Source: Mobula hypostoma (lineage: Eukaryota). Taken from it: a stretch of DNA of 64,000 nt. Location: the NCBI RefSeq assembly GCF_963921235.1, contig NC_086097.1, positions 115,074,001 through 115,138,000 on the forward strand. The letters run 5' to 3'. The position numbers were made by a program, and so were the translations under genes. Under the pieces are notes generated by a model, which saw only the letters and a program-made list of their open reading frames with translations, was not told the DNA's origin and did not search any database. Shown here piece after piece: positions 33,801 to 50,100 of this stretch; position 1 is the first letter of the stretch; every line of letters begins with the position of its first letter.

Positions 33801-34194
33801 GTAGATATAAACTTGTGAGAATATGACAGACAAGAATTTAATTATCTTTATTTTCTTTTGTTCTTCTCACTAGTCTTACACTGCACTGCACTTATTTCAG
33901 TCAATCTTTTTATTGAGAGAAACTTTAATGAGAGTAGTAACAAGTTATGAACTTAAAATGAATAATGATGTACACTCTTGTTTTAAGGCAGATTTCTATG
34001 ACATTAACAATTGTTTCTTCAGAGGGTGTTAAAAATATCTCAAATACTATTTCCATCTTGAGGATGCTTTTCATGATAAAGAATGTGTTTGGTAATATTG
34101 AGAAGCATAAACTTCCCAAATGTGGCTATGAATGCTCACTGGCTAGTGAATACTAGCCTCAATTAGATTTACATTGGTAAACTACAATGACATG

Positions 34195-34392
34195 TGTACC
34201 ATATAGCCTACAGTATAATAAGGGACTACTTTATGTTTTAGTAACATATCGTTGAATGCACTATTAGGCGCGTATTGATCTGTACTTGTGTGCCGAGTTC
34301 GTTTTCTGCCAGTAAAGAACCATGAACCTTAGCTCTCTTCTCCAGCATTTTTATTAATAGCATTGCTGTGTAACCAGGCCACATACACAACA
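34195..34392 (+). repeat. 5' LTR of the SUDS3-carrying element
   Basis: Direct repeat of 37273-37522 with TG..CA ends. Confidence 0.92.
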
Positions 34393-34783
34393 AATTGGCA
34401 ATGAGGATAATGAACCTACATCGTATCGGAACGCCGTGTTTTAATTGATAACGACACTTGGAAGAAGAGCGCAAGGAACAAGCCAAGGAGCGGGAGAAGG
34501 AGGCAGAGCGAGGCAGTGAGTCTGAAAGGAAGCGGGAGCACAGCCAGGGTCAGGAATGTCGGGAGACTAAGATACAAATTCGGAGCCGCAGCACGTCTAG
34601 CCAAGACCACAGCCGGCGCTGACCCCAAGGGACTGAGGGTCTGCCTGCCTCAAAAGGGAGATAAAAAGGAGCGACACACACACAATCTAGACGGAGTGTG
34701 CTCGTGGCGCTAGCAAAAAGGACACAGAGTCAAAAAGGAAAATAGGGGGAAAGCGGGGCTAAATTAACATAACAAAGAAGGCG

Positions 34784-35731
34784 ATGATTGGAACCATTAC
34801 AGCATTTGATAGTGGCATTGAAGACTGGGCAACTTACATTGAAAGAGTGGAGTTATATTGTGAGGCTAGCGGTGTTAAGGATGAAAAGAAAGCCAGCGCC
34901 TTACTCAGTATTTTGGGAGCGAAAACATACGGGCTGCTATGGAGCTTGTTAACCCCTGAAAAGCCAGCTGACAAAACATTCATGCAAATAGCAGACACTC
35001 TCCAACAGTATTTAAACCCCAAACCACTGGTCATTGCTGAAAGATTTAAATTTCACAGACGGAATCAGAGCAAAAATGAAAGTATTTCTGAATATTGTGC
35101 TGAATTGCGCAAATTATCAGAACATTGTCAATTTGGAGCTGGTCTATCGGACACATTGAAGGACAGGTTAGTGTGTGGCATGCACTGTGAAACCACACAG
35201 AAGAAGCTCCTGGGTGAAAAAGACCTTACACTAGAGAAGGCGCTGAACATTGCAATATCAACGGAAACAGCAGCACAGGGTGCTTCAGAAATACAACAAA
35301 AATCTCTGGAATATGCTATGAATAAAATGTCACTGAACAGAAATGAAGGAAAGAAATGTTACCGTTGTGGGAACACGTCACATGACCCGGAGGGTTGTTG
35401 GTTTAAATACAAAGAATGCAGAAACTGTGGCAAACAGGGCCACACTGGCAGATTATGCAAAACTAGTAAACAGCCGAAAAAGGACAAAATACAGAGAAAC
35501 AAGAAACCCTGGAAAGGAAAACACAACAATGTACACAAAATGGAAAAAAGCAGTTCTGATGAAAACGACTCAGACGAAAGTGAATTGTCTTGTCTGCAAC
35601 TTCACAGCATGAAAGAGACAGATGATCGAAGAGTAATAAGAATCACTCCACAAGTGGCAGGTGTGAGACTGAAAATGGAGTTGAACACAGGCTCAGCTTT
35701 AACAGTGATCCTTGTACACAACTACAAATGA
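34784..35731 (+). CDS. gag: Mag-like Gag (two CCHC-type knuckles) running into the protease N-terminus
   Basis: MIGTITAFDSGIEDWATYIERVELY..PKPLVIAERFKFHRRNQ..DRLVCG..CYRCGNTSHDPEGC..CRNCGKQGHTGRLC..LKMELNTGSALTVI. Confidence 0.9.
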   Translation: MIGTITAFDSGIEDWATYIERVELYCEASGVKDEKKASALLSILGAKTYGLLWSLLTPEKPADKTFMQIADTLQQYLNPKPLVIAERFKFHRRNQSKNESISEYCAELRKLSEHCQFGAGLSDTLKDRLVCGMHCETTQKKLLGEKDLTLEKALNIAISTETAAQGASEIQQKSLEYAMNKMSLNRNEGKKCYRCGNTSHDPEGCWFKYKECRNCGKQGHTGRLCKTSKQPKKDKIQRNKKPWKGKHNNVHKMEKSSSDENDSDESELSCLQLHSMKETDDRRVIRITPQVAGVRLKMELNTGSALTVILVHNYK

Positions 35732-35950
35732 CTGTTTTCTCACATACCTCTGAAACGAACTAAACTACTGCTAAAGACTTATACCGGACATAAATTGCAT
35801 CCCAAAGGTAAAATTAAAGTGACAGTGACCTACAGAGTCAAAACACAGCAGCTAAACCTCTATGTACTGAAAAATGGAGGACCACCATTGCTAGGATGAG
35901 AATAGCTCAGGAAAATCCAGTTGGATTGGCACACCATCAAGGCACTAGAT
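35640..35950 (+). pseudogene. Retropepsin protease remnant, in frame with gag and SUDS3
   Basis: MELNTGSALTVI (DTG changed to NTG)..[28 protein letters not shown], where LLG*E*L corresponds to the canonical LLGRDWL. Confidence 0.85.
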
Positions 35951-35983
35951 GTGTCGACAAAGGAGGGAAGCTCGACGGGGAAA

Positions 35984-36908
35984 ATGTCCGCAGCTCTCCT
36001 CTCACCCACTGTCGACTATTACAACGATGAGAAGGAGCAAGACAGCGTCAACAATGAGGACGAATGCAGTATCCGTGGCCGCAACTCGGATGAAGATACA
36101 GAGGACGCAAGGGAGATAGATATTGCCAATAAGCAGGATGATGAAGACTACCTGGAAGCAAAAGAGCAGATGTGCCAGGAGAAATTGACATCTTTCAAAA
36201 GACAGCTACAGCAGTTACAGGAAGGCACTTTGCAGGAGTATCAGAAAAGGATGAAGAAACTAGACCAACAATACAAGGAAAGAATACGAAATGCAGAGCT
36301 TTTACTGCAACTGGAGACAGAACAAGTGGAAAGGAATTATATTAAAGAGAAGAAAGCAGCAGTGAAGGAATTTGAAGATAAAAAGATTGAGTTAGAAGAA
36401 GAGAAAAAGATGATTGCGAATGAGAGGCTAACAATGGAACTCACAGGAGATTCTATGGAGGTAAAGCCAATAATGACTAGGAAACTAAGGAGGAGACCTA
36501 ATGACCCTGTTCCAATTACAGACAAAAGATGAAAACCTGCACTTGCGCAGTTATCTTACTTGTTAACAGATGAACAGATAACGGAAGATCTGCGAACTCT
36601 CAACAAGCTTAAATCTCCGAAAAGACCAGAATCTCCATCTTCTCCTGAGCATCTTCCCAGCACTCCTGCTGAATCACCAGAACAAAGATATGAAGCACGA
36701 ATAGAAGATGGAAAGTTATATTACAATAAGAGATGGTATCATAAAGGTCAGGCTATCTATTTGGAATCTAAGGAGAATACGAAGATTGGCTGTGTAATTA
36801 GCTCAGTTGGAACAAATAAGATATGGGTAAGGAAGACAAGTGATAACACAAAGATGCATATATCTCTAGGATAGCTGCTTCATTATACGGAGGCGATCTG
36901 CTGCCTAG
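35984..36908 (+). pseudogene. SUDS3: Intronless retrocopy of SUDS3 (Sin3 histone deacetylase corepressor complex component SDS3)
   Basis: I recognise [96 protein letters not shown] and the C-terminal FIIRRRSAA* as vertebrate SDS3. The copy runs from the start Met to the stop with no introns. It has stops at 36530 and 36872 and a small frameshifting deletion at about 36878. Confidence 0.96.
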
Positions 36909-37272
36909 AACTCTTAGCAAGCTGGAGGCGCACATCTTCTTAACTCCCTATGCTCAGAGGTCAACTTTACATGACATTTATATGGAAATCTGTATTAAAA
37001 CAAACAAGTTTATTGACAGACGTTATCCGGAGAGGCAGAGTAGACCCCCCCCCGCCCCCCGCAGAGACTTGAGTTATAAATGGGTCTTAGATCAAAAGGA
37101 AAAAAAGGCTTGTTATAATTTGATATTATTATGTTACTTTGTTATAATCTGATATTTTTAAGTTACTAAGTAAACAAATGGTAGGCATTTGTATGTTATT
37201 TGCATATTTGTTTAGCATAGTGCCCCAGTAAAACAAAACAGTTGATACACTATTAAAATAAAAGGGGAGGAG

Positions 37273-37522
37273 CGTACCATATAGGCTACAGTATTATAAG
37301 GGACTACTTTATACTGACTACTTAAAGGGACTACTTTATGTTTTAGTAACTCACCATTGAATGCACTTTTAGGTGCATATTGAGCATGAGCTATTAGGTG
37401 TGTATTGATCTGTACGTGTGTGCTGGGTTCGGTTTCTCCCAGTAAAGACCAATGAACCTTAGCACCCATCTCCAGCATTTTTATTAATAGCATTGTTGTG
37501 TAACCAGGCCACATACTCAACA
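37273..37522 (+). repeat. 3' LTR of the SUDS3-carrying element
   Basis: Follows the PPT, begins cgtacc (T>C relative to the 5' LTR), ends caaca, and is followed by the TSD ACATG. Confidence 0.92.
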
Positions 37523-37854
37523 ACATGTATCTGTAATAACCTTCATTATTTTCCCCCTCCCCCTTTCCTTTTCTTCCATTCCCCATTCTGGCTCTCCTCT
37601 TACTCTTCTCTTCTCCTCATCTGCCTATCATCTCCCCCTGGTGCCTCTCCTCCTTCTCTTTCACCCACGGTCTACTCTCTTCTCCTATCAGATTCCATCT
37701 TCTTCAGCCCTTTACTGCTGCCACCTATCACCTCCCAGCTTCTCACTTCATTCCCCACCCACCCCTGCCACCCACCAAACTACAGAGAGGGAGACAGGAT
37801 ATGTCCAAGCTCATTTGTATGTAGCCATTGATATTTTTTCACTTTACTTACAGT

Positions 37855-38754: not shown

Positions 38755-40400
38755 TTGCGAACACAAGAGATTTTGCAAATGCTGGAAATCCAGAGTAACA
38801 CCCAGAAACTATTGGAGGAACTTGAAAGCTCAGGCAGCATCTACGGAGAGGAATAAATAGTCGATGTTGTTGGGCTGAGGAAGGGGGGAGAAGCCAGAAT
38901 AGGAAGGTGGGTGGAGGGGAAGAAGTACATGCTAGAAGGTGATGGGTGAAGTTTGGTGGGTGGTGGGGTGGGGTGGGAAGTGAGAAGCTGGGAGGTGATA
39001 GGCGAAAACAGTAATGGGCTGAAGAATGCAAACACAAGGAAATCTGCAGATGCTGGAATTTCAAGCAACACACATAAAAGTTGCTGGTGAACGCAGCAGG
39101 CCAGGCAGCAACTCTAGGAAGAGGTATTGTCGACATTTTGGGCTGAGACCCTTCGTCAGGACTAACTGAAAGAAGATCTAGTAAGAGATTTGAAAATGGG
39201 AGAGGGAGGGAGCGATCCGAAATGATATGAGAAGACAGGAGGGGGAGGGATGGAGCCAAGAGCTGAACAGTTGATTGGCAAAAGGGATATGAGAGGATCA
39301 TGGGACAGGAGGCCGAGGGAGAAAGAAAAGAAGGAGGGTGAGCCCAGAGGATGGGCAAGGGGTATAGTCAGAGGGACAGAGGGAGAAAACCTGATGGCAT
39401 GAATATTGACTTCTCAAACTTCTGCTAATGCCCCACTTCCCCCTTGTACCCCATCCGTTATGTATTTATATACACATATCCTTTTTCTCTCTCTCCTTTT
39501 TCTCCCTCTGTCGCTCTCACTATACCCCTTGCCCATCCTCTGGGCTTTTTCTCCCCCTTTCCCTTTTCTTTCCTCCTAGGCCTCCTGTCCCATGATCCTC
39601 TCATATCACTTTTGCCAGTCAACTGTCCAGCTCTTGGCTCCATCCCTCCCCCTCCTGTCTTCTCCTATCATTTCAGATCTCCCCCTCCCCCTCCCACTTT
39701 CAAATCTCTTACTAGCTCTTCTTTCAGTTCGTCCTGACAAAGGGTCTCAGCCTGAAATGTCGACTGGACCTCTTCCTCGAGATGCTGCCTGGCCTGCTGC
39801 GTTCACCAGCAACTTTTATAAGGGCTGAAGAAGGTGGAATCTGATAGGAGAAGACAGTAGACCATGGGCGAAAGAGAAGGAGGAAAGGTACCAGGGGGAG
39901 ATGATCGGCAGATGAGAGGAGAAGAGAAGAGTAAGAGGGAAGCCAGAATGGGGAATGGAAGAAAAGGAAAGTGGGAGGGGGAAAATGACTAGAAAGTAGT
40001 GAAATCGATGTTCATGCCATCAGGTATGAAGATGAGATGTCGCTTCTCCAGCCTGAAAATGGCTTTGTTATAGTCATATAGGAGATCATAGACCAACATG
40101 TTGGAATGGGAATGGGGATTGGCCAACAGCAAATCCTGCATGTTGCAGATGGAGTGAAGGTGCTTGACAAAGCGGTTCCCCAATCCATGTCAGGTCTTAC
40201 CAACATAGAGGAGGCTGCGTCGGGAGCAACGGATAGTGTAGATGACCCCCAACAGATTTGCAGGTGAAATGTTGCCTAACCTGGAAAGACTGTTTGGGGC
40301 CCTGAATGGAGGCTGGGGAGGAGGTGAATGGGCAGGTGTAGCATTTCTTCCACTTGCAGGGATAAGTGCCAGGAGTGGTATCTTTTGTGGTACCTTCTGT
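38755..40400 (-). mobile_element. Old Penelope-like 3' fragment containing a younger inverted pLTR insertion (39027-39821)
   Basis: PGTYPCKWKKCYTCP..QGPKQSFQVRQHFTC and PDGMNIDF on the minus strand. The inner insertion is flanked by an 11-bp duplication GGGCTGAAGAA at 39016-39026 and 39822-39832. Confidence 0.8.
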
Positions 40401-48029: not shown

Positions 48030-50100
48030 GAGGTGAAATTTTGAGAGTACAGAATCTTTATGTTCCTGTTAGGTTGAAAGGAAAGGTTAAAAGTTTGAGA
48101 CAGCCATGGTTTTCAAGGGATATTGGAAACTTGGTTTGAAAAAAGAGAGATATCTACAATAAATATAGGCAGCATGGAGTAAATGAGGTGCTCGAGGAAT
48201 ATAAAGAATGTAAAAAGAATCTTAAGAAAGAAATTAGAAAAGCTGAAAGAAGATATGAAGTTGCTTTGGCAAGTCAGGTGAAAATAAATCCAAAGGGTTT
48301 CTACCATTATATTAATAGCAAAAGGATAGTGAGGGGTAAAATTGGTCCCTTAGAGAATCAGAGTGGACAGCTATGTGTGGAACCAAAAGAGATGGGGGAG
48401 ATTCTGAACAATTTCTTTTCTTTGGTATTCACTAAGGAGAAGGATATTGAATTGTGTAAGCTAAGGGAAACAGATAGGGAAGTTATGGAAACTATGATGA
48501 TTAAAGAAGAATAAGTACTGGAGCTTTTAAGGAATATAAAAGTGGATAAGTCTCCGGGTCCTTACAGGATATTCCCTAGGACCTTGAGGCAAGTTAGTGT
48601 GGAAATAGCAGGGGCTTTGACAGAAATATTTCAAATGTCATCAGAAATGGGGATGGTTCCAGAAGATTGGTGTATTGCTCATGTTGTTCCATTGTTTAAA
48701 AAGTGTTCTAAGAGTAAACCTAGCAATTATTGGCCTGTGAGTTTGACGTCAGTGGTGGTTAAATTGATGGAAAGTATTCTTAGAGATGGTATATATAATT
48801 ATCTGGATAGACAGGGTCTGATTAGGAACAGTCAACATGGATTTGTGCATGGAAGGTCATGTTTGACAAATCTGTTTGAATTTTTTGAAGAGGTTAGCAG
48901 AAAAGTTGACGAGGGTAAAGCGGTGGATGTTATCCATATGGACTTCAGTAAGGCCTTTGACAAGGTCCCACACGGAAGGTTAGTTAGGAAGGTTCAATCG
49001 TTAGGTATTAATATTGAAGTAATAAAATGAATTCAGCAGTGGCTGGATAGGAGATGCTAGAGAGTGGTGATGGATGACTGTTTGTCAGATAGGAGGTCGG
49101 TGTCTAGTGGTGTGCCTCAGGGATCTGTACTGGGTCCAATGTTATTTGTCATATACATTAATGATCTGGATGAAGGGGTGGTAAATTGGATAAGTATGCA
49201 GATGATACTAAGATAGGTGGAGTTGTGGATAATGAAATAGGTTTTCAAAGCTTGCAGAGAAATTTAGGCCAATTAGGAGAGTGGGCTGAAAGATGGCAGA
49301 TGGAGTTTAATGCTGGTAAATGTGAGGTGCTGCATTTTGGTAGGACTAATGAAAATAGGATATACGTGGTAAATGGTAGGGCATTGAAGAATGCAGTAGA
49401 ACAGAGAGATCTAGGAATAATGGTACATAGTTCCCTGAAGGTGGAAACTCATGTGGATTGGGTGGTGAAGAAAGCTTTTGGTATGGTGGCCTTTATAAAT
49501 CAGAGCATTGAGTATAGGAGTCGGCATGTAATGTTGAAATTGTACAATGCATTGGTGAGGCCTATTTTGGAGTATTGTGTACAGTTTTGGTCACCGAATT
49601 ATAGGAAAGATGTCAACAAAATTGAGAGAGTACAGAGAAGATTTACTGGAATATTACCTGGGTTTCATTACCTAAGTTACAGAGAAAGGTTGAACAAGTT
49701 GGGTCTTTATTCTTTGGAACGTAGAAGGTTGAGGGGGGACTTGGTAGAGCTATTTAAAATTATGAGAGGGATAGATAGAGTTGACATGGATAGGCTTTTT
49801 CCATTGAGAGTGGGGGAGTTTCAAACAGAGGACGTGAGTTGAGAGTTAAAGGGCAAAAGTTTAGGGGTAACATGAGGGGGAACTTCTTTACTCAGAGTGG
49901 TAGCTGTGTGGAACCAGCTTCCAGCAGAAGTGGTTGAGGTAGGTCCGATGTTAAATTGGATAGCTATACGGACAAGAAAGGAATGGAAGGTTATGGGTTG
50001 AGTGCAGGTCAGTGGGACTAGGTGAGAGTAAGAGTTCGGCATGGACCAGAAGGGCTGACATGGCCTGTTTCTGTGCTGTAATTGTTATATGGTCATATGG
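48030..50100 (+). mobile_element. CR1/HER1-like LINE ORF2 (RT), few stops
   Basis: [52 protein letters not shown] and ERVQRRFT motifs. Confidence 0.92.

Follow-up and report, generated by a model that had tools for sequence, protein, structure and literature searches.

Positions 34195 to 37522 of the 64,000-nt stretch of DNA analyzed here (the window; positions 115,074,001 to 115,138,000 of the forward strand of contig NC_086097.1 in the Mobula hypostoma assembly GCF_963921235.1) hold a complete long terminal repeat (LTR) retrotransposon on the plus strand. It has two LTRs, a polypurine tract (PPT), a 5-bp target-site duplication (TSD), a gag-protease (PR) region, and an intronless cDNA of the host gene SUDS3, which occupies the place of reverse transcriptase (RT), RNase H, and integrase (IN). 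A first-pass annotation had proposed this arrangement, including the TSD ACATG, and our analysis bears it out. Gag, protease, 21 nt of the SUDS3 5' untranslated region (UTR), and the SUDS3 coding sequence (CDS) follow one another in a single reading frame. Here, we show that the cargo is a processed host SUDS3 mRNA and that the chimera has retroposed as a unit; the window copy is a dead member of a Gypsy-type family of several hundred copies.

The features of the element are listed in Table 1. Its LTRs start with TG (CG in the 3' LTR copy), end with CA, and differ by 10.2% over 197 aligned bases (Kimura two-parameter [K2P] distance of 0.109); the 5' LTR is 76 to 84% identical to LTRs of autonomous relatives. 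Gag-PR (371 amino acids [aa], 100% covered) shares 54 to 64% aa identity with the best eight "K02A2.6-like" Gypsy polyproteins, which carry the Pfam domains PF13975/PF13650, PF00078, and PF00665. Pfam searches on the broken frames of the window copy gave weak matches (zf-CCHC, E = 0.012; Sds3, E = 1.2e-4) and did not match the protease, so that the homology assignments for the element rest on homology searches. The window element has no pol region in the order PR-RT-RNase H-IN: RT, RNase H, and IN are absent from it and present in its relatives. The element is a non-autonomous derivative of Ty3/Gypsy, not an autonomous member.

Stops interrupt gag-PR of the window copy at 35729, 35897, and 35903, and the codon for the catalytic Asp of the protease reads Asn (AAC, 35684 to 35686), a change confined to this copy; nearly all contigs of other copies from public runs have G at 35684. 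The SUDS3 CDS had initially been taken to be full length. It does begin at the ATG at 35984, but a family-wide deletion behind 36387 has removed 24 nt, which code for 8 aa of the coiled coil, and two premature stops (TGA at 36530 and TAG at 36872) as well as a frameshift, caused by a private 11-nt deletion behind 36877, break the frame.

The SUDS3 part of the window copy is 94.9% identical at the DNA level to the spliced SUDS3 CDS of the same genome and 86% identical to SDS3 of Mobula birostris. The host gene, on contig G000:C78, has its 12 exons distributed across some 60 kb; its product is an intact protein of 319 aa, which equals M. birostris SDS3 except for an insertion in the annotation of the latter. 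All 11 host introns, including one AT-AC intron, are precisely missing from the element. This AT-AC intron is host intron 7, between exons 7 and 8 (L044-L045 region), and is of the U12 type (ATATCCTTTT...AC).

Similarity to the host starts at mRNA position -21 in 28 of 29 copies and at -17 in the other, and the 24-nt deletion is common to all examined copies covering the place. The common start and the common deletion show that there was one capture. Lost with the 24 nt are the 8 aa ELKENLIA of real SDS3 proteins, absent from every element copy covering the place; a degenerate pattern for this peptide matched the genome twice, one match being a SUDS3 exon on G000:C78. The gap falls within exon 6 and is bordered there by direct repeats of GAGTT, so that it reflects a deletion and not alternative splicing. 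Spliced host SUDS3 mRNA that contains the 24 nt missing from the element was found in runs X18 and X19, whose status as RNA is guessed, X18 also containing intron sequence. Downstream of SUDS3 CDS position 461, locus L037 carries 795 nt that match part of host SUDS3 intron 11 at 96% identity and are probably a younger repeat; L052 shares 70 nt.

Family size, parent element, and junctions

A 32-mer spanning the PR-SUDS3 junction (up to 3 mismatches) matched the genome 298 times, versus 0 times for the reversed control, and the junction is therefore not a product of chance. A 251-nt junction probe returned 621 candidates; 40 of these were scored, and all 40 span the whole probe at 89 to 91% identity. 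Junction copies are spread over many contigs. When 20 copies were compared together with their flanks, most aligned from LTR to LTR, similarity ending at the LTR edges and the flanks being unrelated. Among 11 scorable copies, the window copy included (four further rows with poorly placed ends and six loci with no LTR in the span were left out), the 5-bp TSD was perfect in eight and carried one mismatch in three, with a different 5-mer at each locus. The chimera underwent secondary retroposition as a unit. The first-pass annotation had envisaged a non-autonomous, gene-transducing family that integrates as a unit and is mobilized in trans, with a single copy as the finding that would speak for a one-off accident. 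At least 298 junction copies, the TSDs of their own, and autonomous relatives that share LTR, gag-PR, and tail uphold the family and dispose of the accident.

LTR-LTR K2P distances across 11 family copies range from 0.057 to 0.123. The gag-PR tree of 23 family and 6 autonomous copies (after exclusion of 6 rows that were poorly covered or poorly aligned) is a star with a median tip length of 0.046, in which autonomous copies are interleaved; given this shape, it does not resolve subfamily clades. Copies are 88 to 95.5% identical to the host SUDS3 CDS and about 90% identical to one another. Taken together, these identities, the star tree, and the LTR divergence fit one old burst soon after capture. 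CGA>TGA stops recur at SUDS3 codons 102, 191, 212, 247, and 316, pointing to CpG decay. An open SUDS3 frame was found in 0 of 29 copies and an unbroken gag-PR frame in 0 of the 28 other copies examined. Several "SDS3-like" models of M. birostris and M. hypostoma carry the same deletion as the element, which places the family in both species.

A genome search with the 1,315-aa Gypsy polyprotein P0124 (Pfam domains PF00078, PF17917/17919, and PF00665) retrieved gag-pol elements, all full-length ones containing stops. The closest annotated proteins to the parent element are from Mobula. Six autonomous elements (L058 to L063; 4.8 to 5.4 kb; LTR divergence, 0.084 to 0.185) match the LTR, leader, gag, and PR of the window element up to position 35971 at 85 to 91% nucleotide identity and also share its 3' tail from about 36997. 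Filled by one polyprotein, they showed no env-like frame, no search having been aimed at env. The uninterrupted PR-to-RT 32-mer of the autonomous elements, taken at the site equivalent to the PR-SUDS3 junction, has 204 matches in the genome.

At the 5' junction, similarity to host exon 1 begins at 35962 and similarity to the autonomous elements ends at 35971. Element sequence here is ...GGAGGGCAGC-AAGG..., against ...GGCGGGCAGC-TCGG... in the host 5' UTR, and the crossover falls inside this microhomology of 7 to 10 nt. Two 3' junctions were found on this single 5' junction. In the long form (114 matches), 342 nt of host 3' UTR are followed by GAAGACCC...; in the short form, that of the window (116 matches), 113 nt of host 3' UTR up to GACAGAC, a 7-nt microhomology, are followed by GTTACCCGGAGAGGCAGA-GAAGACCC.... 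The cDNA thus ends inside the host 3' UTR, at host position 49476 or 49705, and is joined directly to element sequence. There is no poly(A) at either 3' junction and no TSD around the SUDS3 insert. The short form contains element sequence missing from the long form and the long form host sequence missing from the short form, so that neither is a simple deletion of the other; the second form was made by further recombination with helper RNA or host mRNA on the same 5' junction. The locus thus displays the features of LTR-mediated retrocopies: intronless cDNA in place of pol, microsimilarity at the fusion points, neither poly(A) nor TSD, and secondary retroposition.

A subfamily with a second cargo

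In three loci (L022, L025, and L052), SUDS3 breaks off at CDS position 382 and is followed by a block of about 1.2 kb. The block opens with the 5' UTR and the beginning of a Y-box-binding protein (YBX), which in L022 reads in frame with SUDS3. The block matches the Pfam domain CSD (E = 1e-19), YB-1 in the PDB (E = 2e-37), and a Mobula YBX1-like protein (71% identity). Its first 717 nt match seven exons of the host gene on G000:C75 at 92 to 100% identity, indicating that the second cargo was processed, too. Beyond the cold-shock domain, the sole match is a Mobula model named "YBX1-like," and the cargo is called YBX1-like after this model alone. The SUDS3-to-YBX junction, present at 28 other loci, has a microhomology of 14 nt with one mismatch, and the host YBX 5' UTR itself fits the junction pattern. 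At window position 36942 the block rejoins the SUDS3 3' UTR (25 matches). New here are the two 3' junctions and this subfamily of about 28 copies with YBX cDNA inside SUDS3.

In other variants, SUDS3 extends to CDS position 699 or 677 and is accompanied by no more than the distal part of the YBX block (L024 and L054; L029, L034, L048, and L055; L028). The distal 510 nt (L022:814-1323, minus strand) gave 148 candidates, 40 of which were scored and are all full length. This segment contains no YBX-like frame and matches nothing within 10 kb downstream of host YBX exon 7; it may stem from a last exon located farther away or from an RNA captured as a third cargo. When SDS3 features were mapped by PDB chains (coiled coil, 4zqa; Sin3-interaction stretch, 2n2h; C-terminal domain, 7sxi), variant C was found to comprise SUDS3 aa 1 to 127 only, without the Sin3-interaction stretch, and variant D to lack the C-terminal domain. 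Both truncated-cargo variants were still amplified.

In contigs of public runs from four organisms, the junctions PR-SUDS3, SUDS3-YBX, variant-D, and YBX-SUDS3 are either bridged or present as loose ends. Two of the four runs presumed to be RNA have a contig across the PR-SUDS3 junction (X16, record 10; X18, record 17).

Table 1. Coordinates of the SUDS3-carrying element in the window, and of the second captured block and its host gene elsewhere in the genome
Feature	Position	Strand	Observation
5' TSD ACATG	34190..34194	+	Repeated at 37523-37527; the 5-mer differs in other copies
5' LTR, TG...CA	34195..34392	+	Direct repeat with 3' LTR; 20 other copies lose similarity at the edge
Leader with putative primer-binding site (TGG at 34397) and untranslated region	34393..34783	+	Common to family copies and autonomous relatives
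gag (two CCHC knuckles) and aspartic protease, one frame	34784..35961	+	Gypsy polyprotein homology
5' fusion point, microhomology GG(A/C)GGGCAGC	35962..35971	+	Common to element sequence behind protease and SUDS3 5' UTR
Captured SUDS3 5' UTR, 21 nt, in frame with protease	35963..35983	+	
Intronless SUDS3 CDS, ATG at 35984	35984..36908	+	Host gene has 12 exons; 11 introns absent
Captured part of SUDS3 3' UTR, short variant, 113 nt	36909..37021	+	Host last-exon similarity up to 37021
3' fusion point of short variant, microhomology GACAGAC	37015..37021	+	Alignment of host 3' UTR, short and long copies, and autonomous elements
3' untranslated tail belonging to the element (GTTAYCCGGAGAGGCAGAG..., C-run, 29-nt tandem pair)	37022..37259	+	Common to autonomous relatives
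PPT AAAAGGGGAGGAG	37260..37272	+	Directly before 3' LTR; kept in all aligned copies and autonomous elements
3' LTR, longer internally than 5' LTR by about 50 nt	37273..37522	+	
3' TSD ACATG	37523..37527	+	
Second captured block (YBX)	L022:814-2040	-	Also in L025 and L052
Host YBX gene	G000:C75:3285083-3305326	-	

Fate of the cargo and competing explanations

The host SUDS3 CDS served as the frame reference. By the Nei-Gojobori method (NG86), nonsynonymous (dN) and synonymous (dS) divergence amounted to 0.035 and 0.119 between host and copy and to 0.059 and 0.101 between copies, which by arithmetic leaves 0.005 and 0.069 for the stem, a branch that also takes in the constrained evolution of the host gene after capture. 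Reading the copy-copy ratio of 0.59 as constraint was set aside, since NG86 is biased by the excess of transitions and CpG changes. Selection was instead assessed by comparing singleton variants, which represent post-insertion decay, with variants shared by several copies. For SUDS3, the counts of nonsynonymous plus stop (N) to synonymous (S) variants were 312:118 (2.6) among singletons and 116:43 (2.7) among shared variants, with a Fisher P value of 0.91 on the non-CpG subset (310:118 versus 84:30). For gag-PR in the same copies, minus one badly aligned row, they were 418:126 and 133:89 (odds ratio, 2.2; P = 3.7e-6), a signal of constraint that is also present when gag and PR are taken one by one, although exchange with the helper lineage may account for part of it. 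The test is thus able to reveal constraint, and it detected none on SUDS3. No copy out of 29 retains the open frame that a working SDS3 subunit, with coiled coil, Sin3-interaction stretch, and C-terminal domain, would require, and the 8-aa deletion falls within the segment crystallized as the dimerization coiled coil (4zqa). These tests indicate that the SUDS3 cargo is a neutral passenger and not a tool of the element.

We consider it likely that a Gypsy element with a single open reading frame captured SUDS3 mRNA by double template switching and that the resulting chimera was amplified in trans with its cargo as a passenger. A small Ty3/Gypsy element of the ray genome would have co-packaged host SUDS3 mRNA in a virus-like particle, and RT would have switched templates twice at short microhomologies. 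The product would be a cDNA comprising LTR, leader, gag, PR, SUDS3 (21 nt of 5' UTR, the CDS, and part of the 3' UTR), tail, PPT, and LTR, with RT, RNase H, and IN lost. The chimera retained all cis signals and would have relied on the proteins of its autonomous sisters for transcription, packaging, reverse transcription, and integration; a single old burst took it to at least about 300 copies. While it was active, further template switches would have produced the second 3' junction, the YBX-capturing subfamily, and recombinants between forms; all examined copies are now dead.

Several observations weigh against this scenario. In the stem from host to family, near-fixed differences number 2 nonsynonymous versus 11 synonymous, which alone resembles constraint; in our view, most of the synonymous changes arose on the host side once the capture had taken place (dS of 0.069 for the stem versus about 0.05 for the tips, unpolarized). 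Gag-PR-SUDS3 and, in L022, SUDS3-YBX are in frame, as a functional fusion needs, each with a chance of about one in four of being so by accident, and the chimera outnumbers its parent by 298 to 204 matches. Shared variants may include recurrent mutations, which pull N:S toward the neutral value, and 29 of at least 298 copies were examined. Moreover, we infer the template switching itself, and a DNA-level deletion after insertion beside SUDS3 (the Swain-Coffin model) would give a microhomology at the 5' junction as well.

It is tempting to speculate that the chimera spread because of its cargo, Gag-PR-SDS3 and later SDS3(1-127)-YB-1, by blunting Sin3-HDAC silencing as a decoy or dominant negative, by tethering particles to chromatin, or by improving RNA stability or packaging in the germ line through YB-1, which has a role in retroviral RNA handling. 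The in-frame fusions and the 2:11 stem ratio would suit such a selected cargo, as would the fact that both cargoes are chromatin or RNA regulators and that the long and short variants retain the full CDS span, including coiled coil, Sin3-interaction stretch, and C-terminal domain; selection would also explain why the chimera outgrew its parent. If true, this would be the first vertebrate retrotransposon armed with host chromatin and RNA regulators, a pol-less element outcompeting its own helper, and the neutral N:S would then reflect post-insertion decay only, the burst having been too fast for informative internal branches. Nevertheless, we regard it as improbable. N:S of SUDS3 is the same for shared and private variants, while gag-PR is constrained in the same copies; part of the dimerization coiled coil is missing wherever copies cover the place; variants C and D were amplified despite their truncations; and no frame out of 29 is open. 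Non-autonomous elements are often more numerous than their parents without any cargo, and both captured genes are broadly expressed housekeeping genes, which makes chance co-packaging likely. The suggestion in the first-pass annotation that the cargo modulated host silencing as a decoy or dominant negative is thus not supported, given the shared and private ratios, the coiled-coil deletion, and the amplified truncated variants.

That one or a few copies were domesticated as host SUDS3-like retrogenes, the rest being by-products, seems very unlikely to us. NCBI names SDS3-like proteins of 292 to 480 aa in two Mobula species, among them two open 311-aa frames in M. birostris (P0003 and P0005), which also count against a family of uniformly dead passengers, and the PR-SUDS3 junction is bridged in two of the four runs mentioned above. 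Yet the annotated frames are 83 to 85% identical to the window copy, with many scattered replacements, as neutral decay predicts; a few open frames would be expected by chance among about 300 copies, by an estimate that was not computed; and the RNA status of the runs is a guess, X18 containing intron sequence in addition. A fused gag-PR-SDS3 protein of at least 651 aa was not found among the best 120 protein matches, a weak piece of evidence. The SDS3-like and Y-box-binding protein 1-like models (P0003 to P0007 and P0243) of the two Mobula species are most likely retrotransposon cargo. To a processed pseudogene made by a long interspersed nuclear element (LINE) and nested in the LTR element, or to an assembly artifact, either of them spread by segmental duplication, we give next to no credence. 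In favor of this reading, processed SUDS3 pseudogenes are reported to be abundant in cartilaginous fishes, no mechanism being given in the cited part of that report (bioRxiv 10.64898/2026.06.26.734816). Here, however, the SUDS3 block has neither poly(A) nor a TSD around it and replaces pol instead of interrupting it. Segmental duplication is at odds with the 5-bp TSD that each copy has outside its LTRs, the unrelated flanks, and the many contigs, and an artifact with the recurrence of the same junctions in contigs of independent public runs from four organisms.

Relation to known systems

The mouse elements ETn (with MusD as helper), VL30, and MaLR combine helper-like LTRs and cis signals with a non-pol interior and outnumber their helpers. 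To our knowledge, their interiors have no recognizable host-gene origin, unlike the interior described here, which is 95% identical to the spliced mRNA of the host itself. Captured-gene LTR elements of plants, such as maize Bs1 and those of rice, are low in copy number. The SUDS3 family differs from them in being a vertebrate family with a full CDS and hundreds of copies. It resembles them in being non-autonomous, in containing pieces of more than one cellular gene, and in moving in trans. Such plant elements are cited in PMC5131818 and in the plant review PMC13317346.

The mechanism is already known. LTR-mediated retroposition, including secondary retroposition and multigene chimeras, was described in flies, mosquito, zebrafish, chicken, and mammals in the cited passages of Tan et al. 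(2016; PMC5131818). As in our case, their retrocopies consist of spliced host cDNA between two LTRs in place of internal sequence, with microsimilarity at both switch points, no poly(A), and chimerism of several genes, and the product can retropose again as a "pseudo-LTR retrotransposon." In the Drosophila cases presented there, insertion sites are few, though more than one, compared with at least 298 copies versus 204 parent sites here; unlike the retrocopies of that account, the chimera keeps gag-PR in frame with the cargo and exists in at least five structural variants. The capture of FAM8A1 by HERV-K (Jamain et al. 2001, as cited in PMC5131818) likewise joined a vertebrate LTR element to a processed host gene with microsimilarity at the fusions; as presented there, it is a single captured pseudogene, whereas SUDS3 gave rise to a family.

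Acutely transforming retroviruses offer a close parallel, as far as they are treated in the passages cited (Swain and Coffin 1992; Goodrich and Duesberg 1990; both via PMC5131818): the genome is replication defective, pol is replaced by spliced cDNA fused to gag, a helper acts in trans, the junctions show microhomology, and, in line with the model of read-through plus recombination, several independent 3' junctions are combined with a single 5' junction. In contrast to them, the SUDS3 family spread in the germ line, with no sign of infection or of a selectable phenotype; an env-like frame was not seen either, no search having been aimed at one. The selectable advantage conferred by the cargo of such viruses has no counterpart here, considering the neutral shared N:S and the amplification of truncated variants. 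A search of the literature (SUDS3 with LTR retrotransposon, Gypsy gene transduction in cartilaginous fishes, Mobula retrotransposons, and non-autonomous LTR elements) returned no description of a SUDS3-carrying Gypsy element, in agreement with the first-pass annotation. The SUDS3 family is an unusually successful case of known LTR gene capture: it extends vertebrate capture beyond one-off retrocopies to a family of at least about 300 members that recombined again with its helper and took up a second host cDNA. Its junctions form a natural record of template switching, with microhomology lengths and alternative 3' junctions on one 5' junction.

In the cited part of a 2026 preprint (bioRxiv 10.64898/2026.06.26.734816), SUDS3 ranks with the genes that have left the most retrocopies in cartilaginous fishes, and such lists are read as lineage-specific retention. 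In the genome of M. hypostoma, the SUDS3 retrocopy count hitchhikes on a retrotransposon, which means that counts of retrocopies per parent, as well as gene annotation, can be inflated by one capture. MIPOL1, SDF2L1, SLU7, and ZNF276 are listed there beside SUDS3, and their copies may be transposon cargo as well.

At window positions 37530 to 37800 and 38947 to 39000, a CT-rich low-complexity stretch follows directly 3' of the element, and inverted repeats of 35 to 37 nt, 1.2 kb apart, are possibly the ends of another element.

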